DNA of 24,000 bases from Pyrococcus horikoshii OT3. Lineage in GTDB: Archaea > Methanobacteriota_B > Thermococci > Thermococcales > Thermococcaceae. Location of the stretch: NCBI RefSeq assembly GCF_000011105.1, contig NC_000961.1, positions 487,940 to 511,939 of the forward strand. Reading direction: 5' to 3'. How positions within the stretch are numbered: position 1 is the first letter of the stretch; each line of letters opens with the position of its first letter. The translations under genes were made by a program, and so were the position numbers. This document shows, in pieces, positions 1,031 through 17,971 of this stretch. The notes under the pieces were generated by a model. That model had not been told where the DNA came from and did no database searches. It was given only the letters and a program-made list of their open reading frames with translations.

Positions 1031-1080
1031 CCAGCTATTTTTAGAAAATATTGAAAAACTTCCAAGGGGAGGTGACAGTA

Positions 1081-1785: not shown

Positions 1786-1818
1786 TTTCCTTTCAAATTT
1801 TTAGGAGGTGAAAGGAAA
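1786..1818 (+). other. Inverted repeat (9-bp arms, 15-nt loop) spanning the flaB1-flaB2 junction
   Basis: TTTCCTTTC (1786-1794) pairs with GAAAGGAAA (1810-1818). The loop AAATTTTTAGGAGGT contains a T5 run and the flaB2 Shine-Dalgarno. The 3' arm ends on the A of ATG 1818. The stem is AU-rich (3 GC pairs). Confidence 0.35.
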
Positions 1819-2441: not shown

Positions 2442-2455
2442 AGGGGGTGGTTTAA

Positions 2456-3460: not shown

Positions 3461-3496
3461 TTTCTTTCTAGCTCTCTTCACCTTTTAGTTTTTCTT
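3461..3496 (+). terminator. T-rich intergenic tract between flaB3 and flaB4 (internal terminator/attenuator candidate)
   Basis: TTTCTTTCT...CCTTTTAGTTTTTCTT. This 56-nt spacer is the longest intergenic gap inside the archaellin array; the others are 10-32 nt. Confidence 0.3.
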
Positions 3497-3516
3497 AAAC
3501 TTAAGGGGGTGATAGC

Positions 3517-4161
3517 ATGAGGAAGGGAGCAATAGGCATTGGTACACTGATCGTCTTTATCGCAATGGTTCTAGTAGCCGCAGTAGCCGCGGGGGTAATC
3601 ATAGGAACAGCAGGTTACCTCCAGCAGAAAGCCCAAGCAGCAGGGAGGCAAACAACCCAGGAAGTTGCAAGTGGAATAAAGATCGTCAATGTATTCGGCT
3701 ACATAAACGCAACTCCCCCAAGCAATGGAACGATAGTCAAGATGGCCATCCTGGTAACTCCCAACGCTGGGAGCAGTGGAATTGACTTAAGCAACGTTAA
3801 GATAGTGCTCAGCGATGGGAAGAGGTTAGCGGTTTACAACTACAGCGGAGTACTATACACGGGGAAGATACTCGACCTCTTCAACTTGACGATCTGGAAG
3901 AATACCAGCAACGGAACCTTCAGCATTGCAGTGGTTAATGACGTTGGTTCAAAGATGGAGAACCACCACCCAACCCTCGAGTGGGGTGACACCGTTGCAC
4001 TGCTCCTCAGAACTGACGATGTCTTCGAGTACGAAGGTAAGGGTGGAATAGGGCCATCCACAAAGATAATAGGGAAGGTGATTCCGGATGCTGGAGCTGC
4101 TGGAGTTATAGACTTCACGACTCCCCCAACGTTTGGCTACAACGTGTTAGAGTTGCAGTGA
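3517..4161 (+). CDS. flaB4: Archaellin, paralogue 4 (second sequence subfamily)
   Basis: The N-terminus is MRKG|[35 protein letters not shown]. The C-terminus is [28 protein letters not shown] lies upstream. Confidence 0.95.
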
Positions 4162-4171
4162 GGTGGTGTGA

Positions 4172-4939
4172 ATGAGGAGGGGTGCTATTGGTATTGGAAC
4201 GCTCATCGTGTTCATCGCAATGGTATTGGTAGCTGCGGTAGCTGCTGGAGTGTTAATTACAACCAGTGGCTACCTTCAGCAGAAGGCCATGGCCACTGGT
4301 AGGCAGACCACCCAGGAAGTAGCAAGCGGAATCAGAGTGAGTGGCATTTATGGCTATACTCCTTCAAACCCTCCAGGAAGTGGAAAGATAACGAGGCTAG
4401 TAGTCTACGTTACTCCAAACGCTGGTAGCGGAGGTATTGATCTCGCCCATGTTAGAGTTGTATTAAGTGACGGTAAAAGAATGGCAGTGTATAGGTACTA
4501 TGATTCAGACAAAGACCAAGGACTCCAAGCAGGCTATTTCCTATATGCAGGGGATATTGAGAACATAGTACCCTACTTTAACGATACAGATGTACTCTCA
4601 GTAAGCAATTATACAACGGTAACCAGTGTCGCTGATGTCTGGAAGAATCTATATTATGCAATGACACAAGACAATAAGATGCTCTTTGGAATTGTGGTCG
4701 TTGCAGATGACGATGATAGCCTAAGCAATACAGCTCATCCCACGCTTGGGTTTGGAGACAAAGCCGCCCTAATCTTGTGGACGATACCATTCGATGACGA
4801 CAATGATTACAGCAATGGCTATGGAATACCACCTAGCACAAAAGTCGTTGGGAAGGTAATCCCAGAGAATGGTGCGGGTGGAGTTATAGACTTCACGACT
4901 CCATCGACTTACACGGATAACCTAATGGAGCTCCAGTGA
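4172..4939 (+). CDS. flaB5: Archaellin, paralogue 5 (second sequence subfamily)
   Basis: The N-terminus is MRRG|[35 protein letters not shown]. The C-terminus is [29 protein letters not shown] lies upstream. Confidence 0.95.
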
Positions 4940-4949
4940 GGTGATAGCG

Positions 4950-5432
4950 ATGGCCCTTGACTTCCTAACTTCATTATTCAAGAAGAAGGAGAAGGAGGAG
5001 GAAAGGAAGGAAGAAACCTTCGAGGAGGTAACGGTTGAAGAACTTGAGAGCAGGGTTGAAGAGAAGCAGCAGAACGAGCAGATAGAGCAGATAATGGAGA
5101 GGCTCAACGACATCGAGAACGATCTCCCGAGGGTTAAGATAAGCATCGACAACATAAAGAAGCAGATTCAAGAGATCAGGGAGGAGATAGAGAGGCTCGA
5201 CAAGACGATAAAGGACATAATGATGCTCTACGAAGTAGTCTCTCAGGAGATAAACCCATTCAAGGAGCAACTAAGCCAGGAGTCATCGCTAAGTAGTGAA
5301 ATCCAAGAGCTCAAGAAGCAGATAGAAGAGCTGAAGATGGAGCTCGCCCAAGTTAAGAACGACATCAAGGTGCTCGCTGGCTACGGTGTCGACTTAGATT
5401 CGATCCTCTACGAGGTGCTGGCGGAGGTGTGA
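4950..5432 (+). CDS. flaC: Archaellum accessory protein FlaC (coiled-coil)
   Basis: The ORF track starts at GTG 4941, which lies inside the SD GAGGTGA (4938-4944). ATG 4950 follows 5 nt later. The product is a heptad-rich E/K/I coiled coil of about 160 aa. It lies between the archaellins and flaD, as in Thermococcales and Methanococcales fla operons. Confidence 0.7.
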   Translation: MALDFLTSLFKKKEKEEERKEETFEEVTVEELESRVEEKQQNEQIEQIMERLNDIENDLPRVKISIDNIKKQIQEIREEIERLDKTIKDIMMLYEVVSQEINPFKEQLSQESSLSSEIQELKKQIEELKMELAQVKNDIKVLAGYGVDLDSILYEVLAEV

Positions 5433-5435
5433 CCC

Positions 5436-6635
5436 ATGGAGATGGGCTATGTAACTGATGCAGAGATAAATGCAAAGCTTGCAGAGCTTAAGGGAAAGGT
5501 TCCCAGCGTCGTCATAAACGAGCTAAGGGAAAAGCTAATGGCCAAGAAGGATACGCTAACGCCAAAGCAACTTGACGAGATAATAAAGAGGGTTCTTGAT
5601 GCTTATGGAAGTCAAGCGGCTAAGTACGAGCAGATAAGTAAGAGGGTTGATGAGCTAGGTAAGAAGTTGGGTGAGTTAAGCTCACAGTTATCGAGGCTCG
5701 TCGAGGCCCTCGAGGAGAAGAAGTTCGCAGTTCATGAGAAGAAGGCCGAGAGCATAGCGGAAAAAGCAGCTGAAGTCACCGAGAAGGTTGAGAGGATTGA
5801 GGAGTTACTTGAGGAGAAGCCCAAGGAAGAGAAGTCAGAGCTGGCTAAGAAGGTTGAGGAGATACACAAGAAGGTTGAGGAGTTAGAGGAAAAGCTAACC
5901 GGTGAAAAGTTGGAGGAGACTAAGAAGAAGGTTGAGGAGTTGGAGGAGAAGATTGAGAAGGGAGAAGAGGTTACCGCTGAGGAAGTTGGTGAATTAGCTG
6001 AAAAGGTTGAGGAGTTGGAAGCTGAAGCTGCTAAGCCCGAAGAAGAGGTTGTTGTTGAAGTTCCCGAAGAGGAGGAAAAGGTTGAGGTTGTTGAGGAGGA
6101 AGTTCCTCCTGAAGAGGAAGAAGTTGTAACCCCTGAAGTTGAGGTTGTTGAGGAGGAAAAGAAGGAGGAAGTGGAAGAGGAAAAGGAGAAGGAGGAGGTG
6201 GGTAAAATGTCCGAAAAGATGAAGATCCCAGAGGACATCGCGAGCATCCTATTCGAGGAAGAGCCAAAGAAGGCTAGGCTCGAGGAAATACCTGAGGACG
6301 TGGTGTCCATAATGATAGCCCTCAAGTGGCTTGGCTTCCTAATCGACAGGGTGGGAATACAGAACCTAGAGAAAGTCCTTGAGTTCTACTACGAGATCGG
6401 CTGGATAAGCGAAAAGGTTCTCAACCAGCTCCTCAGATTTGCCAGGGGAACTAGGCCTCACCACAGGGATCCCGAATGGAAGCCTGCTGAGAAGTTAACC
6501 GTCCAAGATCACCTGATAAGCCTCCTCTTCATAGAGAGGCTTAGGGGCCTAAGGATCACGAGGGATGTACTAGATAAGCTTGAAAGGGAGGTGAAGATGC
6601 TAGAGAAGACCCTCGATGAGTTCTATGGAGTCTAG
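5436..6635 (+). CDS. flaD: Archaellum protein FlaD (FlaD/E family) with a long acidic low-complexity insert
   Basis: The C-terminal region (IMIALKWLGFLIDRVGIQNLEKVLEFYYEIGWISEKVLNQLLRFARG) is typical of the FlaD/E domain. The middle third is an E/K/V-rich repeat. Confidence 0.85.
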   Translation: MEMGYVTDAEINAKLAELKGKVPSVVINELREKLMAKKDTLTPKQLDEIIKRVLDAYGSQAAKYEQISKRVDELGKKLGELSSQLSRLVEALEEKKFAVHEKKAESIAEKAAEVTEKVERIEELLEEKPKEEKSELAKKVEEIHKKVEELEEKLTGEKLEETKKKVEELEEKIEKGEEVTAEEVGELAEKVEELEAEAAKPEEEVVVEVPEEEEKVEVVEEEVPPEEEEVVTPEVEVVEEEKKEEVEEEKEKEEVGKMSEKMKIPEDIASILFEEEPKKARLEEIPEDVVSIMIALKWLGFLIDRVGIQNLEKVLEFYYEIGWISEKVLNQLLRFARGTRPHHRDPEWKPAEKLTVQDHLISLLFIERLRGLRITRDVLDKLEREVKMLEKTLDEFYGV

Positions 6636-6651
6636 CCTGGAGGGGTAACCA

Positions 6652-7119
6652 TTGGGGTTCAGCGTTTCAGCGAGTGCAGCGATAGTCTTTATTTCTTTTT
6701 TAATAGGATTGGGGACTCTCTACATAGCATGGGAGAATAGTTACCTTGAGGTTCAAGCCGCGAGGGAGTTTTGGTATTCGCTCCGCACTTCCCAGTTACA
6801 CTTCGATATTGGTAACGTTTCGATATCTTACGTTAATTCGACTCACGTTGATGTCGCGTTCACCTATCTAGGTCAAACCCTTGAGGGTAAAATTGATGTG
6901 CTTCACAACGGTACCTATGTGTCTTCCGTCGATGTCACCTATCTAATCCCCGGCGAGAGCTATAGTATAACTATCCCCGGGGGAGATACGAGCGGGAGCT
7001 TAAATCACCTAACCCTCGCTTTCAATAACGGTTGCGTGGCGATCATAGCTTACCATTACAATGGAACCGCATACGTTGTTGACTCAACCTCGATTCAATG
7101 CCCGATGGAGGTGAGCTGA
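6652..7119 (+). CDS. flaF: Archaellum protein FlaF
   Basis: TTG start at 6652 with GGAGGGG upstream. The N-terminus is an archaellin-like hydrophobic segment (MGFSVSASAAIVFISFLIGLGTLYIAW), followed by a beta-rich domain. Operon position also fits. Confidence 0.8.
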   Translation: MGFSVSASAAIVFISFLIGLGTLYIAWENSYLEVQAAREFWYSLRTSQLHFDIGNVSISYVNSTHVDVAFTYLGQTLEGKIDVLHNGTYVSSVDVTYLIPGESYSITIPGGDTSGSLNHLTLAFNNGCVAIIAYHYNGTAYVVDSTSIQCPMEVS

Positions 7120-7592
7120 TGACCGCTGGAGGTCCAGCAAGCGAGCTAATAATGTTCATCGTTGCAGTGATCATAGCGGGTAGCGTAGCTGGGGCCTTAG
7201 CTTACGTCACCAACGATCTAGCGAACAGCATGAAGGATAGGGGAACAATGCTAGCTGATAGCTTGAGGGTTGACTTCGCGATAATTAACGATCCCAGCAA
7301 GATTCCGGTTAGTGGGACTGGCCCTTACACATACACCTTCTACGTCAAGAACATAGGGAAGGATTCAATAGCTTTCAGCTCTAACTCAATCCAAGTGTTC
7401 ATAGATGGTAACATAATCCCTCCCGCGAATTTAACGTTCACCGATGTTAACGGGAACTCGATAAGCTCCTTAGATCCTGGGGAGGTAGGGGCGATCCAAG
7501 TGACTCTTGGGAATGCTTTGGATCCAGGGTACCACAGGATACAAGTGGTTCTAGAGAACGGGAAGGAGAGGGTTTTGATCTTTAAGATCTGA
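7119..7592 (+). CDS. flaG: Archaellum protein FlaG
   Basis: The ORF track starts at 7098. I prefer ATG 7119, which overlaps the flaF stop (TGATG), with GGAGGTGA 4 nt upstream. The N-terminus has a hydrophobic helix (ELIMFIVAVIIAGSVAGALAY). Confidence 0.8.
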   Translation: MTAGGPASELIMFIVAVIIAGSVAGALAYVTNDLANSMKDRGTMLADSLRVDFAIINDPSKIPVSGTGPYTYTFYVKNIGKDSIAFSSNSIQVFIDGNIIPPANLTFTDVNGNSISSLDPGEVGAIQVTLGNALDPGYHRIQVVLENGKERVLIFKI

Positions 7593-7606
7593 AGGAGGGA
7601 TCCAGC

Positions 7607-8305
7607 ATGGTTGAAGAGCTACTAAAGATAGAGCTGAAGGGAGATGAGCTCCACAGGCGTCTAGGCGGTGGCATTCCAGCGGGTACGATAATGCTCATTG
7701 AGGGGGATAGGGGGACAGGGAAGTCAATAATCTCTCAAAGATTACTCTACGGCTTCCTTATGAATGGATATACCTCCTCTTACATTTCGAGCCAATACAC
7801 AACCGTTGAGTACATCAAGCAGATGATGTCGATAAGCTACGATGTTATCCCTTTCCTGATAAGAAAAAAGCTCGTCTTCGTCTCCCTCTACCCTTTACTT
7901 AGCGGTGTTAGCGAGGAGAGGAAGTTCCTAAGTAGATTACTCGGTGAGCCGAGGCTTTGGGATCAAGATGTTATCATCATCGATTCGTTTTCATCCGTGC
8001 TCTCGCGAGAGCAGGATGTCGGTGCGGTGAGAAATTTCCTGATGTACATTAAGAGGCTCTCGAGCCTTGGGAAGGTTATAATATTAACCGCTAACCCCGA
8101 GGAGCTCTCGAGGGATGTGATGTTCCTCCTTGAGGAAGCGTCAACCTTGCTCATGAGGCTCAACGTTAGGGTCTTCGGTGGGGACTTAAAGAACTCAGCG
8201 ACTATAGTGAAGTACAACAATGCTAAGGGGGTGTTTCAGAAGATAATACCGTTTAGGGTTGAACCTAGGGTTGGATTGGTAGTAGAAATAGCGGCGGTGG
8301 TGTGA
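7607..8305 (+). CDS. flaH: Archaellum KaiC/RecA-like ATP-binding protein FlaH
   Basis: Walker A is GDRGTGKS. The protein is 232 aa and lies directly upstream of flaI. Confidence 0.9.
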   Translation: MVEELLKIELKGDELHRRLGGGIPAGTIMLIEGDRGTGKSIISQRLLYGFLMNGYTSSYISSQYTTVEYIKQMMSISYDVIPFLIRKKLVFVSLYPLLSGVSEERKFLSRLLGEPRLWDQDVIIIDSFSSVLSREQDVGAVRNFLMYIKRLSSLGKVIILTANPEELSRDVMFLLEEASTLLMRLNVRVFGGDLKNSATIVKYNNAKGVFQKIIPFRVEPRVGLVVEIAAVV

Positions 8306-8306
8306 T

Positions 8307-9920
8307 ATGGCAGAGGCCGTTTCAGGAACGCTTGAGGAGGCAATGCGCAGGAATCCTCACCTTAGGAAGTACGTTGAGGAGTTTAGGCGTAAGTATGGTA
8401 AAGTCCCCGAGTTTCACGTTCAGCTAACCACCGAGATGAGGGATATCCCATATCCCAACATAATCTATCCCGTTGGTGATCCGATATTCATACACATCTA
8501 TGGTGACCCCCAAACGGAAACCCAGTACATAGTGATAGAGCCGAGGATAGAGAACAGGGAGGAAGAGGAGAAGTACAAGTTGATAAAGGATAGGATCCTT
8601 GAGCTAGCACCTACTAGGGATATTCCAGAGGAGCAGGAGGAATTCGAGAGGTTCCTTGATTCCCTGTTTGAGGAAGCAGTTCTCTCCCTGGTGAAGGGGA
8701 GGAAGGGATTAAAGATAACCAAGGAGGAGATGGAGAAGTTCAGGTATCTTGTGAAGAGGGATATAATTGGAATAGGTCCCCTGGAACCAATAGCGAGAGA
8801 TCCCTACCTTGAGGATATCCACATAATAGGTGCGAACTACGTTTCTGTTGTCCACAAGATATTCCAGCATCTACCGACGAACATAAAGTGGAAAGATAAC
8901 ATAGAGCTTGCAGATTATTTGAAGAACCTATCCGAGAGGATAGGAAGGCCCGTCAGCGATAGGAACCCAATAGTTGATGGAACCCTTCCTGATGGTTCTC
9001 GTATAAACATAATCTACTCCCCAGATATCTCGCTCAAGGGTCCTAGTGCAACGATAAGAAAGTTTGCAGCAACCCCGCTGAGCATAACCCAGCTTATAGC
9101 CTGGGGTACGATGAGTGCAGAGATAGCCGCTTACCTCTGGTTGGCCATAGAGTATGGTATGAGCATATTCGTCTGCGGTGAGACTGCCTCGGGTAAAACA
9201 ACTACTTTGAACGCTATAATTCCCTTCATAAAGCCGGGATCAAAGGTCTATACAGCTGAAGATACTCCTGAGGTTCAGGTCCCCCATCCAACTTGGCAGA
9301 GGCTCGTTACCAGAGAGAGGGGTCCCGAGGAGAGTAGGGTTACGCTGTTCGACCTCCTGAAAGCTGCTCTAAGATCTAGGCCAAACTACATCATAGTCGG
9401 TGAGATTAGAGGTGCTGAGGGTAACATAGCCTTCCAGGCCATGCAGACGGGACACCCTGTTATGAGTACCTTCCACGCTGGTGACGTTAAGAAGATGATC
9501 CAGCGTTTCACGGGCTCACCTATAAACGTTCCTATAACCTTCATAGATAACCTTAACATCGCACTGTTCCAGCAAGCGGTTTACGTTAAGGGTAAGTTCC
9601 TGAGAAGGGTTATCACAGTAGTCGAGATAGAAGGTTACTACGAGGAACTCGGAGGAGTTGCAACCAGGAACGTCTTCGAGTGGGATCCTGTAAACGACAG
9701 GCACATATTCAGGGGTATGAACAACTCCTACATACTCGAGAATAAGATAGCCGAGATAGCTGGGTACGAGGATCCCAAGGCGATATACGATGAGCTCTTC
9801 CTCAGGGCTAGGATCCTTCAGAGGATGGTTGAGCTCAAGATATTCAATTACTGGGATGTGTACAGGGAGATTAAGGCCTTCTACCAGAGGGGTATCGAGG
9901 GATTGAGCTTCAGGATCTGA
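8307..9920 (+). CDS. flaI: Archaellum motor ATPase FlaI (type II/IV secretion ATPase superfamily)
   Basis: Walker A is GETASGKTT. Other motifs are YIIVGEIRGAEG and the His-box region STFHAG. The protein is 537 aa. Confidence 0.95.
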   Translation: MAEAVSGTLEEAMRRNPHLRKYVEEFRRKYGKVPEFHVQLTTEMRDIPYPNIIYPVGDPIFIHIYGDPQTETQYIVIEPRIENREEEEKYKLIKDRILELAPTRDIPEEQEEFERFLDSLFEEAVLSLVKGRKGLKITKEEMEKFRYLVKRDIIGIGPLEPIARDPYLEDIHIIGANYVSVVHKIFQHLPTNIKWKDNIELADYLKNLSERIGRPVSDRNPIVDGTLPDGSRINIIYSPDISLKGPSATIRKFAATPLSITQLIAWGTMSAEIAAYLWLAIEYGMSIFVCGETASGKTTTLNAIIPFIKPGSKVYTAEDTPEVQVPHPTWQRLVTRERGPEESRVTLFDLLKAALRSRPNYIIVGEIRGAEGNIAFQAMQTGHPVMSTFHAGDVKKMIQRFTGSPINVPITFIDNLNIALFQQAVYVKGKFLRRVITVVEIEGYYEELGGVATRNVFEWDPVNDRHIFRGMNNSYILENKIAEIAGYEDPKAIYDELFLRARILQRMVELKIFNYWDVYREIKAFYQRGIEGLSFRI

Positions 9921-9930
9921 GGTGATTCCA

Positions 9931-11643
9931 ATGCCTAAAGAAGAGAAGATCAGCATCTTCGTAAAGGCAGACCTAAATCCAAAGGAGTACATGAAGAAGA
10001 TCCTCATCCCAGGGTTAGCTGGCTCGGGAATTCTTTTCCTTGTAATGGGTTTTTTCACTAGGTTGATAACCCTTCCCAGGGGCCTAGTCTTCTTCATGTA
10101 CCTCGTCCCAGCTATAATAGCTGTGTACGTTGCTGCCTACCCTTACCTAGCTGCTGATTCGAAGAGGCTTTCCATAAACTCCAAGCTACCTTACTTCATA
10201 ACTTACTTCGCTGTCCTCTCGACGAGTGAGATAGGGAGAACGGATATACTCAGGGTTCTTGCAAAGGATCCCAAGCTTGGGGCCATAGCCAATGAGATGA
10301 AGAAGGTTTACATAATCGTTGACAAGCTCCATAGATCCCTACCAGAAGCGTTCAGGTTCCTAGCGAAGAGAACCCCCAGTAAAGTTTTTGCTGACTTCCT
10401 GGATAGACTAGCTTATTCCTTGGATAGCGGTGTCGAGCTAAAGGATTACCTGTTCCAGGAGCAGCAAACCGTTATGGATGATTATCAGACCTTCTACGAG
10501 GGGGCCCTCTATGATTTGGATATATTCAAGGAGATTTACGAGTCGGTTATAATCTCGATAGTCTTCGCAGGAGCCTTCATGATCATAGGGCCCATATTGA
10601 CGGGCCAGAACATAGGTAGGTTAGCCCTTTATTTAGCTTTCCTAATACTCGCGGCCGAGATCGGTTCACTACTCGTGATAAAGTATAGGATGCCCGAGGA
10701 TCCTATATGGGCCGAGAAGAGGGTTGAGACTCCTAGGTATAGGAGGATAAAGAGGGCTGCAATAATCTCGGGCATGCTAGTTCCAATAGTCTTCCTCCTC
10801 TACTTCGCTCTAATAAGGCCGAGGTTTCACCTTCCCACTCCATTCGTGATAGCCCTATCCCTAACTCCTTTAGCTTACTTAGGTAACGTCGTTAGGAAGG
10901 AGGAGGGAATAATATTCAGGAAGGATGAGAACTTCCCTGCTTTCATAAGGAGCTTAGCTTCATCGCTAGCTGCAAGTGGTGCCTCGCTTTTGCTGGTACT
11001 TAAATACCTCAGTGCCCACGACTTCGGAATGCTCACGGAGGATATAAGGGCCCTTTACAGGAGGCTCGCCGTTAGGGTTGATTCAGCCAGGGCCTGGGAT
11101 TTCTTCATAGCTGAGACTGGTAGCTGGTTGATAGGTATATTCTCAGAGATATTCAGGGAGAGCCTTAGGCTAGGGGCCGAGCCGGATTACGTTGGTAAGG
11201 TTATAAGCAGGAACTTCGAGAGGCTCGTAAGGCTTAGGAGGAAGAGGCTCCAGAGCGTCTCAAACTTCATAGGAATAATCCTGGGATTGACGGGGGCCTT
11301 TGCATTCTCCCTAGCAGCATCCTTCCAGGTAGCCGTCACGATAAATTCGATATTCAGCAAGTTCCAAGTTCCAACGGAGTACATAGGTAACGTTATCCAC
11401 GTTATACCCCCGAGCGGGCTTAAGCTCCTCGATCTATCCCTGATAATAATCATGATAGTCCACTCACTCCTCTCGGCCTTGGCAATTAAAGTAGCGGATG
11501 GAGGTAACCTTCTCGCTTCGCTCTACTACTTCGTGATACTACTCTGGGTCTTCGCCATAGGAATGTACATTGGTCAGGTGCTGATGTCCAAGTTCATGAG
11601 CGTTGGAGGGGGAAGCTTGATACTCTTCCTACTGGGGGTGTGA
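9931..11643 (+). CDS. flaJ: Archaellum polytopic membrane platform protein FlaJ
   Basis: The ORF-track GTG 9922 lies inside the SD GAGGTGA (9919-9925). ATG 9931 follows 5 nt later. The protein has many hydrophobic segments separated by two soluble GspF/TadC-like regions. Confidence 0.9.
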   Translation: MPKEEKISIFVKADLNPKEYMKKILIPGLAGSGILFLVMGFFTRLITLPRGLVFFMYLVPAIIAVYVAAYPYLAADSKRLSINSKLPYFITYFAVLSTSEIGRTDILRVLAKDPKLGAIANEMKKVYIIVDKLHRSLPEAFRFLAKRTPSKVFADFLDRLAYSLDSGVELKDYLFQEQQTVMDDYQTFYEGALYDLDIFKEIYESVIISIVFAGAFMIIGPILTGQNIGRLALYLAFLILAAEIGSLLVIKYRMPEDPIWAEKRVETPRYRRIKRAAIISGMLVPIVFLLYFALIRPRFHLPTPFVIALSLTPLAYLGNVVRKEEGIIFRKDENFPAFIRSLASSLAASGASLLLVLKYLSAHDFGMLTEDIRALYRRLAVRVDSARAWDFFIAETGSWLIGIFSEIFRESLRLGAEPDYVGKVISRNFERLVRLRRKRLQSVSNFIGIILGLTGAFAFSLAASFQVAVTINSIFSKFQVPTEYIGNVIHVIPPSGLKLLDLSLIIIMIVHSLLSALAIKVADGGNLLASLYYFVILLWVFAIGMYIGQVLMSKFMSVGGGSLILFLLGV

Positions 11644-11646
11644 AGG

Positions 11647-13572
11647 GTGAGGAAGCTAATCCTAGTGCTAATACTCCTCATGCTCCCAGGGGTGTCGGCA
11701 TCTACCTTCGTTGGCTGGGCTAACCTAGGGGAGAGCGTTAGCTATGGGGATAACGCTATAGTGGTGAGGGATGTAGGAGTTGATGGAGAGGTCTTAATAG
11801 CACTCTCAACCCCTAGCGGTGTTAGCTATCTCTCCCTAAAGCCCGGGGAAGAGGAGAAGGTTGGCGATGTTAAGGTTAAGGTTGAGAAGGTTTTCCTGGG
11901 AGAGAACCCAATGGTTTACCTCAACGTCACCTTCCCGCCGGCGTTGATTAACCAGAGCATTAAGGTTGGAAGGTACGTCATAAGGGTTAAGGATGTTACC
12001 GTTGATTCCTTCGAGGTAACCGTTAGCAACGGAACCGGTGAGAAAGTTTACAAGGATTCCTTTGAGGTTGGGGGTTATAAAGTAGTTATAACTCCAAGAC
12101 CCGAAATATTCTCTGGAGAGCTTAAGCTTCTAGATAATGTAACCTATGGGGATTATAAGATAACCCTCTCCGGCTTAAACATGACTGTCGTTAACAATAA
12201 ATCCTCGAGCATCCTTGACGTTAAGTTCGAGGGTAAAGATTACTGGGTGGAGGAGGGTAAGTACGCTTACGTTGGCCCCTTCATAGTCAAGTACAACGGC
12301 TTCAGGTGTGAGATGAAGGGTAACCTCTGCGATCCGGTTATCTCCCTAGCCGTTTTATTGAGGGGTGTAAATGTTTCAATAGCCTACGATCCCTCAAAGG
12401 TCTTCTGGCTGTACGAGGGTAAGGGGTTCACGGTGGGTCCGCTCATAGTTAAGCTCGAGGGGCTTGCGGATGGAGTTTCCTACATAGTTATATCTAACAA
12501 CTGTGGCGATGAGCTGTACTCGGGAACCTTGAGGGCTAACCCAACTGTAGTAGATTCCATAGAGTACGATGGGATAAAGCTCGGCTTGCTTGAAACGGAT
12601 GAGGATAAAAACGGTAAGAAGGGGCTCTTCATAGCATTCTACAACGAGAGCGAGAAGCCGAGGTATCTAGCCTATCTTAACGTAACTGTAAAGGCCCCTG
12701 AGAGGGTTACCCTTCTATCCCCGTTCAAGGTTAGGGTTAGCGTGATGAACGAGGGGAATAGCAGAGTCATGGGGATGCTCGCTAAGTTCAATCCCGGTGA
12801 TGGGGTGAAGGTAATCGGTAGGGATTCGGTTTACATAAGCTCCCTGGATCCGGGAAAAAGTGTGGAGTTGAGCTTCACCCTTTTACCCACCAAGGAGGGT
12901 AAGGTGAACGTCGGTAAAGTTACAGTTGAGGGTCCAGTCCCATACCCCCTAGCTTGCGGTGGATTGTCGATGCTTAAGTTCTCCTCGAATTCTCCAGTGG
13001 TTGAGGTTGAACCTCTAAACATTGGCGTAAACATTTCTTATCCAGTTTCTGTATCTCTGGGGGTACCCTTTGAGGTCAACGTAACTTTAAGCCATAACAT
13101 CGAGGGGAACCTAACGCTAAATCTACCCCCAGGGATCGGTTTACTATCCGAGGGTAGGGTTTCAGCGGGTAGCGTTGTGCTCCCCGCTAGGAATGCTTCA
13201 ATAAAGCTAGTCGCAGTCACCCCAGGAAACTACACGGTTCCGGTAACGTTAGCATCCCACGGGGTAAAGCTCTACAACTCGACTATAAGCTTCGAGGTTC
13301 AGGGTGAGAATGAAGCTCCAGCAGTAGCAGTTACTACCATTACAAAGGTAATAACGAAGACAGAGGAAAAGGTGAGTGAAAAGACTATAACAGTTTCAAA
13401 GAACGAGACGATAACTAAAACGATAACAATGACGAAAACGATGGTAAAAACATCGGAGATAACAAAAACTGTAGTTGGGAAGGGAAGGGAGCTCTTAATG
13501 TTCATCCTAGGTGTCATCCTCGGGATTGGGATAATAATACTAGTTGCCTGGATTAAGGCCCGCTCTTCCTGA
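11647..13572 (+). CDS. Secreted, C-terminally membrane-anchored surface (S-layer-domain/CARDB-like) glycoprotein candidate, coupled to flaJ
   Basis: GTG start 3 nt after the flaJ stop, with GGGGGTG upstream. The signal peptide is MRKLILVLILLMLPGVSA|ST. The body is beta-rich with many N-x-S/T sequons. A Thr/Lys-rich stalk (ITKVITKTEEKV...TKTMVKTSEITKT) follows. The protein ends in a TM helix plus a basic tail (WIKARSS). Confidence 0.7.
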   Translation: MRKLILVLILLMLPGVSASTFVGWANLGESVSYGDNAIVVRDVGVDGEVLIALSTPSGVSYLSLKPGEEEKVGDVKVKVEKVFLGENPMVYLNVTFPPALINQSIKVGRYVIRVKDVTVDSFEVTVSNGTGEKVYKDSFEVGGYKVVITPRPEIFSGELKLLDNVTYGDYKITLSGLNMTVVNNKSSSILDVKFEGKDYWVEEGKYAYVGPFIVKYNGFRCEMKGNLCDPVISLAVLLRGVNVSIAYDPSKVFWLYEGKGFTVGPLIVKLEGLADGVSYIVISNNCGDELYSGTLRANPTVVDSIEYDGIKLGLLETDEDKNGKKGLFIAFYNESEKPRYLAYLNVTVKAPERVTLLSPFKVRVSVMNEGNSRVMGMLAKFNPGDGVKVIGRDSVYISSLDPGKSVELSFTLLPTKEGKVNVGKVTVEGPVPYPLACGGLSMLKFSSNSPVVEVEPLNIGVNISYPVSVSLGVPFEVNVTLSHNIEGNLTLNLPPGIGLLSEGRVSAGSVVLPARNASIKLVAVTPGNYTVPVTLASHGVKLYNSTISFEVQGENEAPAVAVTTITKVITKTEEKVSEKTITVSKNETITKTITMTKTMVKTSEITKTVVGKGRELLMFILGVILGIGIIILVAWIKARSS

Positions 13573-14482
13573 GCTCCCAATATTCGTAGAGGACATTACC
13601 GTCTATTACTCCATATATATCTATCCCATCGGTCTCGTAGTGTATTATTGGACTTCCAACGATGCTTGACACCTTCTTTAAGCTCTTCATATCCTCAACT
13701 ATAACCCTCTGCCCTATTCCAGTTGGCCTACCCTCTATCGCCTTCCACTTCTTCTTCCTGGGTTCCCATGTCACTGGGGTGAGGATCCCGAATATCAGCG
13801 TTAGCACCGGGAACAAGATTCTAGCCCTAGAAACTGGCATTCCCAGGAATTCAAGGTTTTCATTTATGGTCTTAACTTTGTTATTTACCTTCTTTTCTTC
13901 GGTGTTTTCTATATAAGTTAAACCGCTTGCTGCATCGTTAACCACTGGCATCTCCTGGGTGAACGTTCCGTTTCCTCTCTTGACCCTTGCTATCACGGTT
14001 AGCTCATAGCTTAGCCTCGGCAAGTTGAGGGCCTTGCTTATTTCAGCTTCCCTCCCATTTATCTTGGTTAGGTTAACCTTGAAGTCTTGCATGAACCTTC
14101 CGTTGGTTAAGTTACCCGTGTACCTGAAGGTCGTCTCGTTAAGCAGGTAGATCTTCTCCTTCCCCTTGGTTACGTAATATGAGGTTATCCCTTCTAGTGT
14201 GTAGTTACCCTCTTCCTTGGGAATTATCCTATACTTATATTCCCCTAGTATGTAGTCGGTGACCTTTGTCGGGTAATATTCCAGCGATGCGTAGCTACCG
14301 TAGATCGTCGAGTTCGTGAAGTGAGCCGTGTGCGTTAGTACACCTTCTTCAACCACGCTTTCAACTAGCACCCTGCGCTCGAACGATGCGGGCTTCATGT
14401 ATGAAGCTATAGACAAAGTCAGGAAAATCAAAAATAGGCCGATGAAAGCGTATTGCATTCTTTTATCCTTAATCCTCAACAT
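13553..14482 (-). CDS. Bitopic/two-TM membrane protein, last gene of the SipW/TasA-like operon
   Basis: ATG 14482 has AGGAGG 5 nt upstream and overlaps the upstream gene's stop by 7 nt (ATGTTGA). The N-terminal TM is YAFIGLFLIFLTLSIASY. It is followed by a beta-rich domain of about 200 aa with sequons, then a second TM (ILFPVLTLIFGILTPVTW). A basic stretch (RKKKWK) and a C-terminal domain of about 70 aa follow. Confidence 0.7.
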   Translation of the reverse strand: MLRIKDKRMQYAFIGLFLIFLTLSIASYMKPASFERRVLVESVVEEGVLTHTAHFTNSTIYGSYASLEYYPTKVTDYILGEYKYRIIPKEEGNYTLEGITSYYVTKGKEKIYLLNETTFRYTGNLTNGRFMQDFKVNLTKINGREAEISKALNLPRLSYELTVIARVKRGNGTFTQEMPVVNDAASGLTYIENTEEKKVNNKVKTINENLEFLGMPVSRARILFPVLTLIFGILTPVTWEPRKKKWKAIEGRPTGIGQRVIVEDMKSLKKVSSIVGSPIIHYETDGIDIYGVIDGNVLYEYWELRKSGP

Positions 14483-14862
14483 CTTCTCCTCCTACATTTA
14501 ACATTTAATTTAGCCCCTCCCCCATCCCAGGAAGCTTTGATCGTATAGTTCCCTGGGAAGACGTAGATCTTCTTCGAGTATCCTGGATCTATCCTTCCAA
14601 TGTTAACCTCGCAGGTGTGACCGCAGAAGCTTCTTCTTACTAAAGTGGCATATATTGGGTAGTCAAGGTTATTCTTTATCGTTATCACGTTTCCTGGGCA
14701 GCATCTTATGAACTTGCACTGAACGTCTATGAAGGGGTCATCACCGTACCCAACTATTATCTGCCTCTCCATGCTAGTTTCCCTGAACGTTGATGAGCTT
14801 CCAACCTTCACCATAAGGAGGGCCAATGAAATTAGCAATATTCCAATAACCTTTCTTCTCAT
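14476..14862 (-). CDS. Small Cys-rich secreted protein sharing the N-terminal motif of the putative fibre subunits
   Basis: I prefer ATG 14862, which forms an ATGA overlap with the peptidase stop; the ORF track uses TTG 14868. The signal peptide is MRRKVIGILLISLALLMVKVGSSS|TF. The mature part has 7 Cys in about 100 residues and ends CRRRRC. Confidence 0.65.
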   Translation of the reverse strand: MRRKVIGILLISLALLMVKVGSSSTFRETSMERQIIVGYGDDPFIDVQCKFIRCCPGNVITIKNNLDYPIYATLVRRSFCGHTCEVNIGRIDPGYSKKIYVFPGNYTIKASWDGGGAKLNVKCRRRRC

Positions 14863-15851
14863 TTCCAAAATCTCCCTAAAGATATGTACTCAGGTTCCCC
14901 GAGGAATGGCTTTATCATTGCGAGGGCCAGGAAGACCAGCAACCCTTCGATGATTAGGGGTAAGTAGGGGTTTATCGAGTATGCTCTCTCAATGGTTCCC
15001 GTTGGAAGGAGTGGGTAGTAAGAGTAAACGTTAACCCTTTCAGTGTACACCCTGGTTTCCTCAGGCACGTGAATAATTCCCTTGATGACCCTTTCCTCAC
15101 CACCACCTAGCTTGAAGATCGTGTCGTTCACTATTTTCCCCTTAACTATGAAGACCATGGGTATCCTCGCGTAGTTCTTGATCGTTACGTTTTCTTCAAC
15201 GACGCTCCCAGGAAGGTACCACCCTTCCCTCTGTCCACCACCTAGTGTTGAAACGTAAGTTACGCTTATCTCTCCCCATAGGGTTGAACCGGCGAATACT
15301 ATCCCAAAGGCTAGTAGTGCTGAGAGCATTAAATAGAGCGTTCCAGTATCGATAACCTTTCCCCTTCTCCTCTTCTTCCTCTTAACCTTATTCCCGGTAC
15401 CTAGCATTATTCCTCCAATTACAACTAGGGTAATAGCAAGGTATTGGGAGTTGCTTGATCTTAAGTACATCCCTAGCTTCGGTATCTTAACTGGCTTTCC
15501 TCCCAGGGTTATCACCTTTCCAATTACCTGATCCCTCGGTACAGGTGGGTTTTTGCCGTCTTGCTGATCCGTTGCAACGTTGTTATCGCCCTTGGTTATG
15601 TAACCCTCTTCGGTTATCGCGTAAACCCTGTGAACAGTCCATCTTCCGGAAAGGTTGAACACTATTATATCCCCAACCTCTCCCTTGGAAAGGGGGTTGA
15701 TGAAGAAGACATCCCATCTGTTTATGGTAGGTACCATGCTGTCGGAGTATGCGTAGGAAACGAACACGGGTCTCCCCATCAGAAAGCCTACCACCGAAGG
15801 TACCACGATACCAACCAATAGTAGGCTAATTAAGATGTCGGAGACCCGCAT
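14859..15851 (-). CDS. Signal peptidase I, archaeal/SipW/Sec11 type (S26B), with a C-terminal extension of about 170 aa (3 extra TM segments plus a second extracytoplasmic domain)
   Basis: The N-terminal TM is followed by box B YSDSMVPT (Ser nucleophile). Box D is WTVHRVYAI (His) and box E is ITKGDNNVATDQ. TM2 follows, then a cytoplasmic KVKRKKRRRGK loop, TM3, a beta-rich domain of about 110 aa, and TM4. GGTGA lies 6 nt upstream of the ATG. Confidence 0.85.
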   Translation of the reverse strand: MRVSDILISLLLVGIVVPSVVGFLMGRPVFVSYAYSDSMVPTINRWDVFFINPLSKGEVGDIIVFNLSGRWTVHRVYAITEEGYITKGDNNVATDQQDGKNPPVPRDQVIGKVITLGGKPVKIPKLGMYLRSSNSQYLAITLVVIGGIMLGTGNKVKRKKRRRGKVIDTGTLYLMLSALLAFGIVFAGSTLWGEISVTYVSTLGGGQREGWYLPGSVVEENVTIKNYARIPMVFIVKGKIVNDTIFKLGGGEERVIKGIIHVPEETRVYTERVNVYSYYPLLPTGTIERAYSINPYLPLIIEGLLVFLALAMIKPFLGEPEYISLGRFWK

Positions 15852-15876
15852 TTTTCGTCACCCAAAAGGGGAACTA

Positions 15877-15893
15877 AAGGGGCGGAGCCCCTT
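15877..15893 (-). terminator. GC-rich 7-bp stem / 3-nt loop hairpin after the second subunit gene, followed by T-tracts (attenuator or mRNA-stabiliser candidate)
   Basis: On the - strand, AAGGGGC-TCC-GCCCCTT starts on the last base of the stop codon. TTTAGTTCCCCTTTTGGG follows, ahead of the peptidase SD. Confidence 0.45.
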
Positions 15894-16420
15894 CAGTGGC
15901 ATTCACCAGCGACTGCGCTTACGTCTATCTGGAATTGGTGTTCACCGCTGCTTAACCCGGTGTTGTTGAATATCATTCCAACTGAAACGGGCTGACCATG
16001 GTATACCGTGAATGAGATCTGGTAGTCGGGTCCCGCTATTGGGCTGTTGTAAGTTCCGGCAAAGACCTTCACGGGTGATTCAGCTTTTACAGTTACACAT
16101 ATTGGGTAATCCTGCTGGGCGTTTTCCCAAAGTTCGTTGCTGACGTTGAACATTTCCTCAAATACGTAAATGCTGTCTGTGCTAAGACCTTCTCCATATC
16201 CGGGATAGCTTGGATTGTTTGACGAGATCTCTACAGTCAATTTTCCGTTGTTCAGGTACACGTAAGGTTGTACTGGGGTTAGATCTATTAACTCTGAGTC
16301 GTCGCTCACTATGGCTACGCTCATATCTCTATTTGCTTCGAAATACCTAAAGTTGGCCCCCGCGCCAACTGCTAACATAAGCCCTGCAAGGAACAGGGCT
16401 ATTCCAAACAATTTATTCAT
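15893..16420 (-). CDS. Secreted TasA-like / DUF1102-like putative fibre subunit, paralogue B
   Basis: I prefer ATG 16420 (GGAGGT 7 nt upstream) over the ORF-track TTG 16426. The signal peptide is MNKLFGIALFLAGLMLAVGAGA|NF. The protein shares DDSELIDLTPVQPY, NNPSYPGYG and VSNELWEN with the upstream paralogue. Confidence 0.7.
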   Translation of the reverse strand: MNKLFGIALFLAGLMLAVGAGANFRYFEANRDMSVAIVSDDSELIDLTPVQPYVYLNNGKLTVEISSNNPSYPGYGEGLSTDSIYVFEEMFNVSNELWENAQQDYPICVTVKAESPVKVFAGTYNSPIAGPDYQISFTVYHGQPVSVGMIFNNTGLSSGEHQFQIDVSAVAGECH

Positions 16421-16440
16421 TTTCAATACCTCCTACTAAT

Positions 16441-17046
16441 TCAAGGCCCCTGCCCGCACTTGCCAACTAAGTCAGCTGGCTCAGTGCCGAGCCTGTAGGC
16501 CTTAATCTCTAATGTTCCAGTCCACATTTCTCCGGGGTAATCCCCGTTAGCTGATAAGTCCATTCCTATCTTTACCATGTCTTCAGGCTGCACGACAAAG
16601 CATACCCAATCCCTAGCTGAGTCGCTTGCGCTTGCCATTGTTCCGTCATATGCTGAGTATACATTTCTGTCTGCTCCGTAGAATTCTATATGTGAGTTAG
16701 TTGACTTGAGTTCAACGACTATTGGTACGTTTTCCCAAAGGTGGTTGCTTACCCCGAAAACTTCGTCAAAGTTGTATTCACTTGCTGGACTAACTCCGTT
16801 TCCGTAACCTGGATAGTTCGGGTTGTTAGCTGAGAAGTCTATAACTAGCTTTCCGGTAGTTTCATTTATGTACGAATAAGGTTGTATTGGGGTTAAGTCG
16901 ATTAGCTCACTGTCGTCCGTTACTATGTTCCAGTGGACGCTCCTACTGGCGTTGTAGTCACTAAAATTGGCCCCTACGCCGAGCACGAGGCCAAATGCGG
17001 CCAAAAGGCCAAAGACGGCAATCAAGTATCTATTCACTTTTTCCAT
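16441..17046 (-). CDS. Secreted TasA-like / DUF1102-like putative fibre subunit, paralogue A
   Basis: The signal peptide ends ...LLAAFGLVLGVGA|NFSDY. Conserved motifs are DDSELIDLTPIQPY, NNPNYPGYG and VSNHLWEN. An alternative start at GTG 17037 would give M-N-R..., parallel to M-N-K... of paralogue B. Confidence 0.7.
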   Translation of the reverse strand: MEKVNRYLIAVFGLLAAFGLVLGVGANFSDYNASRSVHWNIVTDDSELIDLTPIQPYSYINETTGKLVIDFSANNPNYPGYGNGVSPASEYNFDEVFGVSNHLWENVPIVVELKSTNSHIEFYGADRNVYSAYDGTMASASDSARDWVCFVVQPEDMVKIGMDLSANGDYPGEMWTGTLEIKAYRLGTEPADLVGKCGQGP

Positions 17047-17144
17047 CTCCTGAGTTGCTGGATCCCACCTGGTGTGAGACCCAAACTAAAATGGAGGGGA
17101 AGTTGTATATAGGTAGTTGGAAGTTTAACTCTGGTAACCCCTCA

Positions 17145-17594
17145 TTACCTAGTACATATCCAATGGAAAATCGACAGTGCCAAGAGGATGAGAGAAAATA
17201 TTACACCTTCTGAGCTTGCTAATGCAAGGGAGACAAGTAGGGAAATTGATGAGAAAATTAGGTAAGCCAGGGGCCATAAATTTTTTCCCTCGTTCTTAAG
17301 TTCTATGAAGGTGTGAACTTCGGATGGTACACCCAATAGGTAGACTCTTCCTCTCTCAACATTCACGATCCCTTCCCTCTGTAACCTTGGGAGATGAGTT
17401 TGAACTAGGCTCACGTAGACGCTCTTCCTGTGCCTCCTGTCTTCATTCCCCTCGGCCTTGCATATGTATTCGACGAGCTCGCTAACCTCAGCTTCATTAT
17501 TGTGCTCTCTGAGGAATTCTATTACCTTTAATCTCCTATCATTACCAAGGATAGTAGAAGAGGGGCTCGATAGTAGCCTAATCAAATTTGCCAT
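17145..17594 (-). CDS. Membrane-tethered winged-helix transcription regulator (wHTH plus two C-terminal TM helices)
   Basis: The ORF track starts at 17627. ATG 17594 has GGTGGTGA 5 nt upstream. The wHTH region is RRLKVIEFLREH...VSELVEYI...VYVSLVQTHLPRLQREGIVNVERGRVYL. The C-terminal hydrophobic segments are LWPLAYLIFSSISLLVSLALA and VIFSLILLALSIFHWI. Confidence 0.6.
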   Translation of the reverse strand: MANLIRLLSSPSSTILGNDRRLKVIEFLREHNNEAEVSELVEYICKAEGNEDRRHRKSVYVSLVQTHLPRLQREGIVNVERGRVYLLGVPSEVHTFIELKNEGKNLWPLAYLIFSSISLLVSLALASSEGVIFSLILLALSIFHWICTR

Positions 17595-17748: not shown

Positions 17749-17824
17749 AGCCCCGTGGTGTAGCGGCCAAGCATGCGGGACTCTGGATCCCGCGACCGGG
17801 GTTCGAATCCCCGCGGGGCTACCA
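17749..17824 (+). tRNA. tRNA-Gln (anticodon CUG), CCA encoded
   Basis: Manual fold. The acceptor stem is AGCCCCG/CGGGGCT. The anticodon stem is CGGGA/TCCCG with loop CTCTGGA. The T arm is GGGGTTCGAATCCCC. A TATA-like CTTAAAAG lies at 17713-17720, and a T-run follows the 3' end. Confidence 0.9.
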
Positions 17825-17883: not shown

Positions 17884-17971
17884 GCGGGGGTTGCCGAGCC
17901 TGGTCAAAGGCGGGGGACTCAAGATCCCCTCCCGTAGGGGTTCCGGGGTTCGAATCCCCGCCCCCGCACCA
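17884..17971 (+). tRNA. tRNA-Leu (anticodon CAA), long variable arm, CCA encoded
   Basis: The acceptor stem is GCGGGGG/CCCCCGC. The anticodon stem is GGGGA/TCCCC with loop CTCAAGA. The variable arm is CCCGTAGGGGTTC. The T arm is GGGGTTCGAATCCCC. A TATA-like ATTTTAAAG lies at 17848-17856. Confidence 0.9.

Follow-up and report, generated by a model that had tools for sequence, protein, structure and literature searches.

The tat-fimbriae (tafi) of haloarchaea are the closest described relatives of the gene cluster considered here, six genes on the minus strand of a 24,000-nucleotide (nt) stretch of Pyrococcus horikoshii OT3 DNA (contig NC_000961.1, positions 487,940 to 511,939; this whole stretch is called the window below). 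In Haloarcula hispanica, the fimbriae are specified by tafA-tafG: TafA is the major subunit and TafC and TafE are minor subunits, TafD is a dedicated two-domain signal peptidase with four transmembrane (TM) helices, TafG is a DUF5305 protein, and TafB is a membrane-bound regulator (iScience 2025, PMC11821415). Filaments are absent from tafA and tafD deletion mutants, TafA builds up in its unprocessed form when TafD is missing, and the N terminus of mature TafA is Phe-30 (PMC11821415). Besides, the Tafi bundling pilus of Natrinema sp. J7-2 has been solved by electron cryomicroscopy (cryo-EM) with strand donation (PDB 9P0A) and has a biofilm phenotype (PNAS 2025, PMC12337348). We propose, with a probability of roughly 0.8, that the P. 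horikoshii locus is a Sec-dependent version of this archaeal Taf donor-strand pilus system, with its own peptidase and regulator.

Thermococcales loci are listed as Tafi-like in both of these papers. A search with TafD showed that taf-like clusters are conserved in Thermococcus, Pyrococcus, Archaeoglobus, and others, and PH0561-PH0565 of P. horikoshii were drawn as a "taf-like cluster", one of four examples (Fig. 7D of PMC11821415). The same paper noted that Pyrococcus and Thermococcus chitonophagus have a protein of roughly 130 amino acids (aa), PH0562, replacing the TafC-like protein of roughly 300 aa, and presented AlphaFold (AF2 multimer) heterotrimers of PH0562/PH0564/PH0565 with donor-strand exchange. 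Because the same locus was thus described and modeled, it is already known; an earlier note on this DNA, made from the sequence alone, was right in substance, but its statement that the system had not been characterized in Thermococcales is outdated by this computational description. Three small points go beyond the published papers, namely, the presence of the regulator gene, a palindrome at the pilin promoter, and the limitation of the adjacency with the archaellum genes to Pyrococcus.

The Pyrococcus gene cluster and the Taf parts list

The open reading frame (ORF) listing and a direct reading of the minus strand placed six co-oriented genes from 17594 (or 17627, with an alternative start) down to 13553, as follows.

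17145..17594, minus strand, TafB-type regulator, a DUF7344 winged-helix protein with two C-terminal TM helices (Pfam DUF7344 E 8e-17; hydropathy scan)
16441..17046, minus strand, pilin paralogue 1, PH0565, BAA29654, 201 aa, DUF1102, TafA/TafE-like, with a Sec-type signal peptide (Pfam E 1e-53)
15893..16420, minus strand, pilin paralogue 2, PH0564, BAA29653, DUF1102, 175 aa (ATG at 16420) or 177 aa (TTG at 16426) (Pfam E 5e-54)
14859..15851, minus strand, TafD-type signal peptidase I, PH0563, BAA29652, 330 aa, with an N-terminal S26B catalytic domain and a second extracellular domain lying between the last two (TM3 and TM4) of its four TM helices
14476..14862, minus strand, small secreted protein with a signal peptide, PH0562, BAA29651, 128 aa, 7 Cys, the single-domain counterpart of a two-domain TafC-like protein
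13553..14482, minus strand, TafG-type DUF5305 protein, PH0561, BAA29650, 309 aa, with an N-terminal TM helix, an extracellular beta domain, a second TM helix, and a cytoplasmic tail of about 65 aa

Each of the six products exactly matched a P. horikoshii OT3 protein, the accessions being consecutive (BAA29650-BAA29655), and a neighboring 641-aa protein matched BAA29649. The locus tags run from PH0561 (DUF5305) through PH0562 (small, Cys-rich), PH0563 (peptidase), and PH0564 and PH0565 (both DUF1102) to the regulator BAA29655, which, judging from the accession order, would be PH0566. A 98-nt gap separates the regulator gene from that of paralogue 1, and the two paralogues lie 14 nt apart if the second starts at the TTG and 20 nt apart if it starts at the ATG; a 41-nt gap holding a GC hairpin lies between paralogue 2 and the peptidase gene. 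The peptidase stop codon and the start of the 128-aa gene overlap as ATGA, and the 128-aa and 309-aa genes overlap by 7 nt (ATGTTGA). The layout, gene sizes, spacings, overlaps, and hairpin given in the earlier note were all right. Compared with haloarchaeal Tafi, the Pyrococcus locus is a single co-directional string of genes. The parts lists of the two systems match in the DUF1102 pilins, a TafD-type peptidase, a TafG-type DUF5305 protein, a TafB-type winged helix-turn-helix (wHTH) regulator, and, as a single-domain counterpart in Pyrococcus, a TafC-like secreted protein.

Both paralogues matched Pfam DUF1102, as had been expected, and a second DUF1102 paralogue was found in all loci examined. 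A HMMER search with a profile of 44 DUF1102 homologues (alignment A1) returned 469 relatives among 1.84 billion representatives. Fifty distant relatives, sharing 20-28% identity with the pilins and carrying an MxRRxxL...GTGAF pattern, were compared with curated families: 45 matched Pfam DUF1102, 46 NCBIfam TafE (best E 2.4e-26), 37 TafA, 8 TafC, and 3 TafF, and these NCBIfam matches are independent of the selection by the A1 profile. Alignment by hhalign of the Thermococcales DUF1102 set (A1) with 42 Tat-type (twin-arginine) TafE/TafA-like proteins gave 99.9% and E 2.8e-34 over 184 columns, a figure that is not independent, because the second set was picked by the first profile. We therefore have subunits homologous to TafA/TafE at the family level; the window pilins appear to be family-level, not equivalog, members of Taf and to form a divergent Sec-type branch. 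Indeed, their N termini (MEKVNRYLIAVF... and MNKLFGIALF...) lack the RR motif of twin-arginine signal peptides, whereas the haloarchaeal relatives have the consensus MxRRxxL, so that Tat-type signal peptides in haloarchaea stand against Sec-type ones in P. horikoshii. A Sec-type branch of Tafi-like systems has been published (PMC12337348), and the window pilins fit it. The DUF1102 profile gave chance matches alone against PDB chain sequences, the best being adiponectin (E 0.015). On a 1,094-bp contig binned in an Actinomycetota bacterium metagenome-assembled genome (MAG), two DUF1102 genes of Thermococcales type were seen (L049; L numbers are our handles for the loci compared), which is most likely a binning contaminant and not a bacterial occurrence.

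The three secreted products PH0565, PH0564, and PH0562 share an N-terminal module consisting of a signal peptide, G-x-[GS]-[AS], an invariant [NT]-F, an R, an alternating hydrophobic strand, and DDxE[LF]IDL, the last being degenerate in PH0562 (GDDPFIDV). The N-terminal motifs read LGVGA-NFSDYNASRSVHWNIVTDDSELIDLTPIQPY in paralogue 1, VGAGA-NFRYFEANRDMSVAIVSDDSELIDLTPVQPY in paralogue 2, and VGSSS-TFRETSMERQIIVGYGDDPFIDV in PH0562. The motif h-h-G-[AST]-[GS]-A-[NTD]-F-[RS]-[DY]-Y-x-A-x-R-x-h-x-h-x-[IV]-[VT]-x-D-D-x-E-[LF]-I-D-L-x-P-x-Q-P-Y was carried by 117 of the 155 pilin-like ORFs from the examined loci; the remaining ones were mostly one or two positions off, and a short third paralogue lacked the motif altogether. 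The invariant Phe of the module aligns with the Phe at the N terminus of mature TafA, and the motif around it is homologous in the two systems, reading GTGA-F in haloarchaea and G-x-G-A-N-F in P. horikoshii. Candidate cleavage sites in the secreted products thus lie before the Asn or before the Phe, and the common module should be the part for peptidase recognition and strand donation.

PH0562 had no Pfam or NCBIfam match. Its family aligns with the N-terminal domain of proteins of 250-310 aa that occupy the same slot in Thermococcus and Archaeoglobaceae, and hhalign linked it to DUF1102 (97%, E 7e-11) over the first 48 residues alone, that is, over the signal peptide, the cleavage motif GSSS-TFRE, and the strand region. 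A role as filament tip or initiator, as proposed in PMC11821415, is probable for this protein. Many Thermococcus and Archaeoglobus loci have, just upstream of the peptidase gene, a third and shorter DUF1102 paralogue (150-170 aa) without the [NT]F...R...DDxELIDL motif (e.g., L007 11251-11748, L010 11166-11615, L011 1842-2315, L012 11162-11620, L026 8654-9133, and L060 1239-1745), which is probably a TafF-like terminator subunit.

PH0563 scored 64.1 bits against TIGR02228 sigpep_I_arch of NCBIfam (cutoff 51.85), in agreement with the archaeal-type signal peptidase I match predicted earlier, and 27.6 bits against Pfam Peptidase_S24 (cutoff 23.3), while phmmer of PH0563 against the PDB returned no match. 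The Ser, His, and Asp boxes described as intact were all found, as SDSMVPT, HR, and TKGDNN. Across 16 orthologues, S36/S38/M39/P41, H74/R75, T86-K87-G88-D89-N91, and D95/Q96 were invariant, and a conserved extracellular motif followed TM3. Hydrophobic stretches at residues 1-32, 138-156, 166-193, and 292-318 give the protein the four-TM, two-domain architecture of an operon-encoded S26 peptidase dedicated to its locus, like TafD.

The presumed partner of the peptidase is PH0561. By itself, it reached 20 bits against Pfam DUF5305, below the cutoff of 29, and its assignment as the TafG-type protein beside the peptidase is based on orthologues above the threshold, Thermococcus and Archaeoglobus included (34.6 bits in Pyrococcus abyssi, 43 bits in L007, and 58 bits in L054). 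Residues of about 245-309 (13553-13750) form a strongly conserved cytoplasmic domain, …SLKK..G.PIIHY..DG..YGVIDG.V.YE.W in alignment A7, which was modeled as a small alpha/beta unit; through this domain, the processing machinery outside the cell could be connected with a partner in the cytoplasm. The AF2 model of PH0561 had a predicted local distance difference test score (pLDDT) of 71.5 and a predicted template modeling score of 0.42. We also considered whether DUF5305 is the counterpart of eukaryotic Spc3/SPC22-23, the beta-sandwich partner of Sec11 in the signal peptidase complex (SPC). This idea was unsupported: the model, a weak one built on an 8-sequence alignment, had no PDB match at E <= 1e-3, and the top 50 matches held generic Ig/Fn3-like sandwiches and no SPC subunit.

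The window regulator was judged as a TafB-type protein (a cytoplasmic HTH plus two TM helices) through a homologue on a metagenomic contig (L068), where a DUF7344 gene is divergent to a Tat-type TafE-like pilin gene. The two DUF7344 proteins are 28% identical (E 2e-11) and have the same layout of wHTH and two TM helices. The membrane-tethered wHTH regulator assigned to this module by the earlier note is thus borne out by the DUF7344 match and by the two TM helices, which are seen in a hydropathy scan as two overlapping hydrophobic stretches in residues 106-149.

The gene order was conserved in about 50 Thermococcales and Archaeoglobales loci, where it reads regulator, pilin, pilin, (third short DUF1102), peptidase, (variable TafC-like protein), and DUF5305. 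The peptidase gene lay downstream of the pilins in all 47 loci, DUF5305 was present in 31 of 37, and the regulator gene stood directly upstream of pilin 1 in 35 of 47 other loci, a neighborhood conservation as strong as had been anticipated. Conserved homologues of each product, and the same gene order in dozens of genomes, show that the cluster is not a product of chance. In a subgroup of loci from Archaeoglobaceae MAGs (L038-L044, L052, and L058), whose pilins are more divergent (about 47-49% identity), phmmer found no DUF5305 with at least 5 kb of sequence downstream of the peptidase; in that subgroup, the protein is either too divergent to detect or dispensable. Two loci from Thermococcus MAGs (L029 4954-9650 and L018 11-442) carry a 305-aa ORF and five tandem paralogues (roughly 210-280 aa) between the regulator and the first pilin gene. 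These ORFs have no signal peptide and no Pfam match, most copies have an N-terminal motif containing G-K-H-L, and the array looks like an insertion unrelated to the pilus genes.

Pilin fold, proposed assembly, and competing explanations

The AF2 model of PH0565, built on alignment A1, had a pLDDT of 78, with an all-beta core in residues 50-185 and low confidence or disorder in residues 23-46, and so agrees with the beta-rich fold and N-terminal strand region that had been predicted. A Foldseek search of the PDB with this model gave a sole match at E <= 1e-3, the TasA-like pilin AbpA of Pyrobaculum calidifontis (7UEG; E 1.8e-5, probability 1.0). The AbpA/AbpB pilus (PMC9245690) resembles the proposed one in having a Sec-secreted pilin with a beta-sandwich or jelly-roll fold and an N-terminal donor strand, assembled without a chaperone. 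It differs in that AbpA has no detectable sequence similarity to PH0565 (11% identity in the structural alignment), its operon (ABP) has neither a dedicated signal peptidase nor a DUF5305 partner, and its host belongs to a different phylum, Thermoproteota. The next Foldseek matches were FimA chaperone-usher pilins (E 2.6e-3 to 1.7e-2), a cannula-like tube (9BAB), and the Natrinema Tafi (9P0A). FimA-type pilins likewise have an incomplete Ig-like fold completed by the N-terminal donor strand of a neighbor; however, they are bacterial and diderm specific and depend on a chaperone in the periplasm and an usher in the outer membrane, and the P. horikoshii locus encodes neither.

Taken together, the DUF1102 and TIGR02228 matches, the AbpA fold match, and the synteny support the idea that this is a chaperone-free fiber module outside the type IV pili with a dedicated SipW-like peptidase of the ER/archaeal-type S26 family. 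An accessory role in a type IV pilus (T4P) or archaellum was rejected, as no archaellin, T2SSE, or T2SSF match was found in the six products and no conserved linkage was seen. In the signal peptides of the secreted products, the cleavage motif is C-terminal, behind the hydrophobic core, and the T4P-type matches belong to the neighboring archaellum (arl) genes.

Export, cleavage, and polymerization are proposed here by homology to experimentally studied systems, and the locus has the features of sequence and structure on which these steps depend. The membrane-tethered TafB-type regulator would control the pilin promoter, probably via a GTAA-N7-TTAC element about 20 nt upstream of the TATA box, as conservation and co-occurrence suggest. 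The two DUF1102 pilins and PH0562, in whose sequences the shared motif is seen, would be exported by Sec. The TafD-type peptidase, probably with the TafG-type DUF5305 protein, would cut at or next to the invariant Phe and free the N-terminal strand, following the haloarchaeal TafD/TafA pair, in which mature TafA starts at the homologous Phe (PMC11821415). By donor-strand complementation, the freed strand would fill the incomplete beta-sandwich of the following subunit, and this may give a thin fiber independent of chaperone and ATPase, as judged from the cryo-EM structures of Natrinema TafE (PMC12337348) and Pyrobaculum AbpA (PMC9245690), and PH0562 might serve as the strand-donating tip or initiator. 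A hairpin and T-run after pilin 2 would probably raise the ratio of pilin transcripts to those of the processing genes. The likely role of such fibers, by analogy with Natrinema Tafi, is in adhesion or biofilm formation.

Several observations weigh against a working pilus. Electron microscopy of Pyrococcus furiosus has been reported to show archaella as the sole obvious appendage. Full-text literature searches (locus tags, DUF7344, and tafi plus Thermococcales) returned the two bioinformatic treatments alone, with no experimental work on any Thermococcales member and no published detection of such filaments in that order. The window pilins reached about 18 bits and below, and that in their first 40 residues alone, where the NCBIfam cutoffs are 190 for TafA and 155 for TafE, and the similarity of the PH0565 model to the solved Tafi pilus 9P0A is weak (E 0.068, TM-score 0.38). 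Besides, the Pyrococcus locus is reduced compared with Tafi: the third DUF1102 paralogue is missing from the Pyrococcus loci, the P. horikoshii locus has no TafF-like protein with a TM anchor that could be the terminator or anchor, and the TafC counterpart is cut to one Cys-rich domain of 128 aa. Because of this missing paralogue and truncated protein, the Pyrococcus version might be less functional or differently anchored. One could go further and suppose that the products are peptidase-matured surface or matrix proteins that form no pilus in Pyrococcus, acting as monomeric adhesins or S-layer-associated proteins, or that the locus is a largely silent remnant of a reduced Taf system. We consider this unlikely, as none of the six genes is broken and their conservation between Pyrococcus species is high (49-87% identity), a disordered strand region at the N terminus with the invariant F...R...DDxELIDL is just what donor-strand pilins need, strand exchange appears in the published AF2 multimer models of PH0562/PH0564/PH0565 (PMC11821415), and the promoter and the operator candidate are conserved.

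The Bacillus subtilis tapA-sipW-tasA operon, with which the locus was compared in the earlier note, is of like design, in that an operon-encoded S26 peptidase of ER/archaeal type matures a fiber subunit, an accessory protein gives the first donor strand, and the fibers belong to the biofilm matrix. This shared logic, the common peptidase family (TIGR02228, with a weak SipW match of 32 bits), and the argument that AbpA, our best structural match, is a TasA homologue (PMC9245690) would also suit a direct orthologue of that operon, a TasA/camelysin fiber gained by horizontal transfer. Such a derivation is highly improbable and was disfavored by each family comparison: the pilins matched DUF1102 alone and no Peptidase_M73/TasA family of Pfam, PH0563 scored 32.3 bits against the SipW equivalog NF046067 with its cutoff of 190, and TasA structures were absent from the top 50 Foldseek PDB matches. 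The anticipated SipW-cognate signal-peptide profile was not found on the N-terminal 60 residues even at E <= 10, a scan that returned weak TafA/TafE matches and one weak match to the unrelated membrane-anchor model AmaP. In addition, the two extra TM helices and second domain of the P. horikoshii peptidase, as well as the DUF5305 partner, are not part of the three-gene operon (PMC9245690), nor is the membrane-tethered regulator. The likeness to TasA/SipW therefore holds as an analogy of design within a shared peptidase family, but not as homology beyond a remote one, and since the link is remote, Tafi are the proper reference system.

Archaellum genes and the flanks of the module

The plus strand of the window carries an archaellum cluster at 1051-11643, comprising five archaellins, FlaC, FlaD/E, two short archaellin-related ORFs (at the F/G positions), H, I, and J. 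The gene between this cluster and the pilus locus is the following.

11647-13572, plus strand, 641-aa surface protein, BAA29649, starting 4 nt after flaJ, its 3' end overlapping that of PH0561 by 20 nt

Besides a signal peptide and a TM anchor at the C terminus, this protein has CARDB/BatD/DUF11-like domains and 16 sequons for N-glycosylation. Its signal peptide ends SAS-TF, like SSS-TF in PH0562, without the downstream R/strand motif. The protein has a conserved homologue in P. abyssi and, as far as was seen, none in the other taf-like loci; its gene corresponds to the "hypothetical gene" that, after arlJ, closes the arl cluster of P. furiosus, which has its own regulator, EarA (PMC10665913).

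The tail-to-tail position had suggested a switch between motile and sessile states. The archaellum adjacency was verified in P. horikoshii and P. abyssi, the latter with the same arrangement of a convergent 642-aa gene (17-nt overlap) and flaJ/I/H, whereas archaellum genes were nearby in none of the 29 other loci (Thermococcus, Archaeoglobaceae, and Geoglobus) that had at least 8 kb of downstream sequence. The adjacency is therefore not a property of the pilus system but occurs in Pyrococcus alone among the loci examined, and this weakens the switch idea, which was based on adjacency. A functional coupling of the module to the archaellum, through convergent overlapping transcription with the arl cluster or through shared regulation, would be compatible with the overlapping 3' ends of PH0561 and the last arl-cluster gene, with the same arrangement in P. 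abyssi, and with the contribution of Tafi to Natrinema biofilm formation (PMC12337348). We nonetheless regard it as quite improbable. Apart from the 29 loci, simple synteny already predicts such an adjacency within a single genus, the P. furiosus arl operon is under EarA (PMC10665913), and the window has one operator candidate, at the pilin promoter, with no exact copy and no excess of 1-mismatch sites near the arl genes.

On the opposite side of the module, just upstream of and divergent from the regulator gene, lie tRNA-Gln(CTG) at 17749-17824 (plus strand) and tRNA-Leu(CAA) at 17884-17971 (plus strand); an Rfam scan of the 24-kb window found nothing beyond these two tRNAs. In P. abyssi, a formate-hydrogenlyase-type cluster takes the place of the tRNA genes, and thus the synteny break falls exactly at the regulator side of the module.

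Regulator, candidate operator, and hairpin

The regulator gene has been said not to be present in P. horikoshii (PMC11821415). It is present, intact, and annotated (BAA29655/WP_048053161), 98 nt upstream of PH0565, and it was also found in P. abyssi (L065 9361-9819), which corrects that statement. The protein has 149 aa in RefSeq (WP_048053161) and 160 aa with an alternative ATG at 17627 in the original annotation (BAA29655). The start at 17594 seems preferable to that at 17627, because GGTGGTGA lies upstream of it, together with a TATA-like cttaatatac at about 17645-17636. Three further elements may bear on expression of the cluster.

17134..17148, unstranded, palindrome GTAA-N7-TTAC (GTAATGAGGGGTTAC on the minus strand), candidate operator, overlapping the regulator stop codon
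17099..17118, minus strand, conserved pilin promoter block AACTACCTATATACAACTTC, with a TATA box CTATATAC at 17112-17105 (putative promoter function)
15864..15897, minus strand, RNA hairpin with the core GGGGC-UCC-GCCCC and an 11-bp stem, followed by T-runs and spanning the pilin-2 stop codon

The 20 nt of the promoter block are identical in P. horikoshii and P. abyssi, against 69% identity in the rest of the intergenic region, and an (A/T)TTAC-CTATATAC block also occurs in Thermococcus loci. About 20 nt upstream of the TATA-box block, the two Pyrococcus species have the palindrome in the common form GGTAAT-x-AGGGGTTACC, which is kept in P. abyssi even though the end of its regulator gene lies some 85 nt farther upstream. 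The window contains one exact GTAA-N7-TTAC, with 1-mismatch sites at chance level. Across the compared loci, 26 of 54 had the exact palindrome within 300 nt upstream of pilin 1, against 6 other sites in about 760 kb, an enrichment of more than 100-fold over the remaining locus DNA. The element co-occurs with the regulator gene: the exact form was found in 20 of the 34 loci where the regulator gene is adjacent versus 2 of the 12 where it is not, and a relaxed pattern in 27 of 34 versus 3 of 12. Outside P. horikoshii, it reads GTAA-N7-TTAC, often GTAAT-N5-ATTAC, ahead of the (A/T)TTAC-CTATATAC block (L007, L008, L014, L021, L022, L028, L031-L033, L035, L045, L046, L048, L050, L051, L053-L057, L061, and L065). 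Several Thermococcus loci have a second, degenerate copy abutting the TATA box, and Geoglobus and Archaeoglobaceae loci have a TAA-N7-TTAA-like variant.

These patterns suggest that GTAA-N7-TTAC is the probable operator of the TafB-type regulator, which would act there either as an activator or as a repressor. More tentatively, and at less than even odds, the DUF7344 regulator and the palindrome may be an undescribed cis/trans pair that switches the donor-strand pilus on or off upon a membrane or envelope signal, with an antagonistic coupling to motility possible in Pyrococcus via the 3' overlap with the arl cluster. One conceivable signal is the export or processing state of the pilins, since regulator, peptidase, and DUF5305 protein all sit in the membrane and the last has a conserved cytoplasmic domain.

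The hairpin stem (15897-15873) had a folding free energy of -22.8 kcal/mol and a z score of -2.4, with 4 of 200 shuffled sequences folding equally well, and it is kept in P. abyssi with one G.U pair. The P. furiosus arl operon has internal poly(T) terminators (PMC10665913), and because of the likeness to these, the P. horikoshii hairpin is possibly a partial terminator or a 3'-end stabilizer between the structural and the processing genes.

Donor-strand pili that need no chaperone, usher, or ATPase are a recently recognized class of archaeal surface fibers tied to biofilm formation. For the Pyrococcus locus, the residual interest lies in the regulator-operator pair, where the candidate operator makes the regulation of the pilin genes directly testable, and in a first experimental test in a hyperthermophile. 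A fiber of this kind that is stable near 100°C would be of interest to cell biologists and materials scientists alike.

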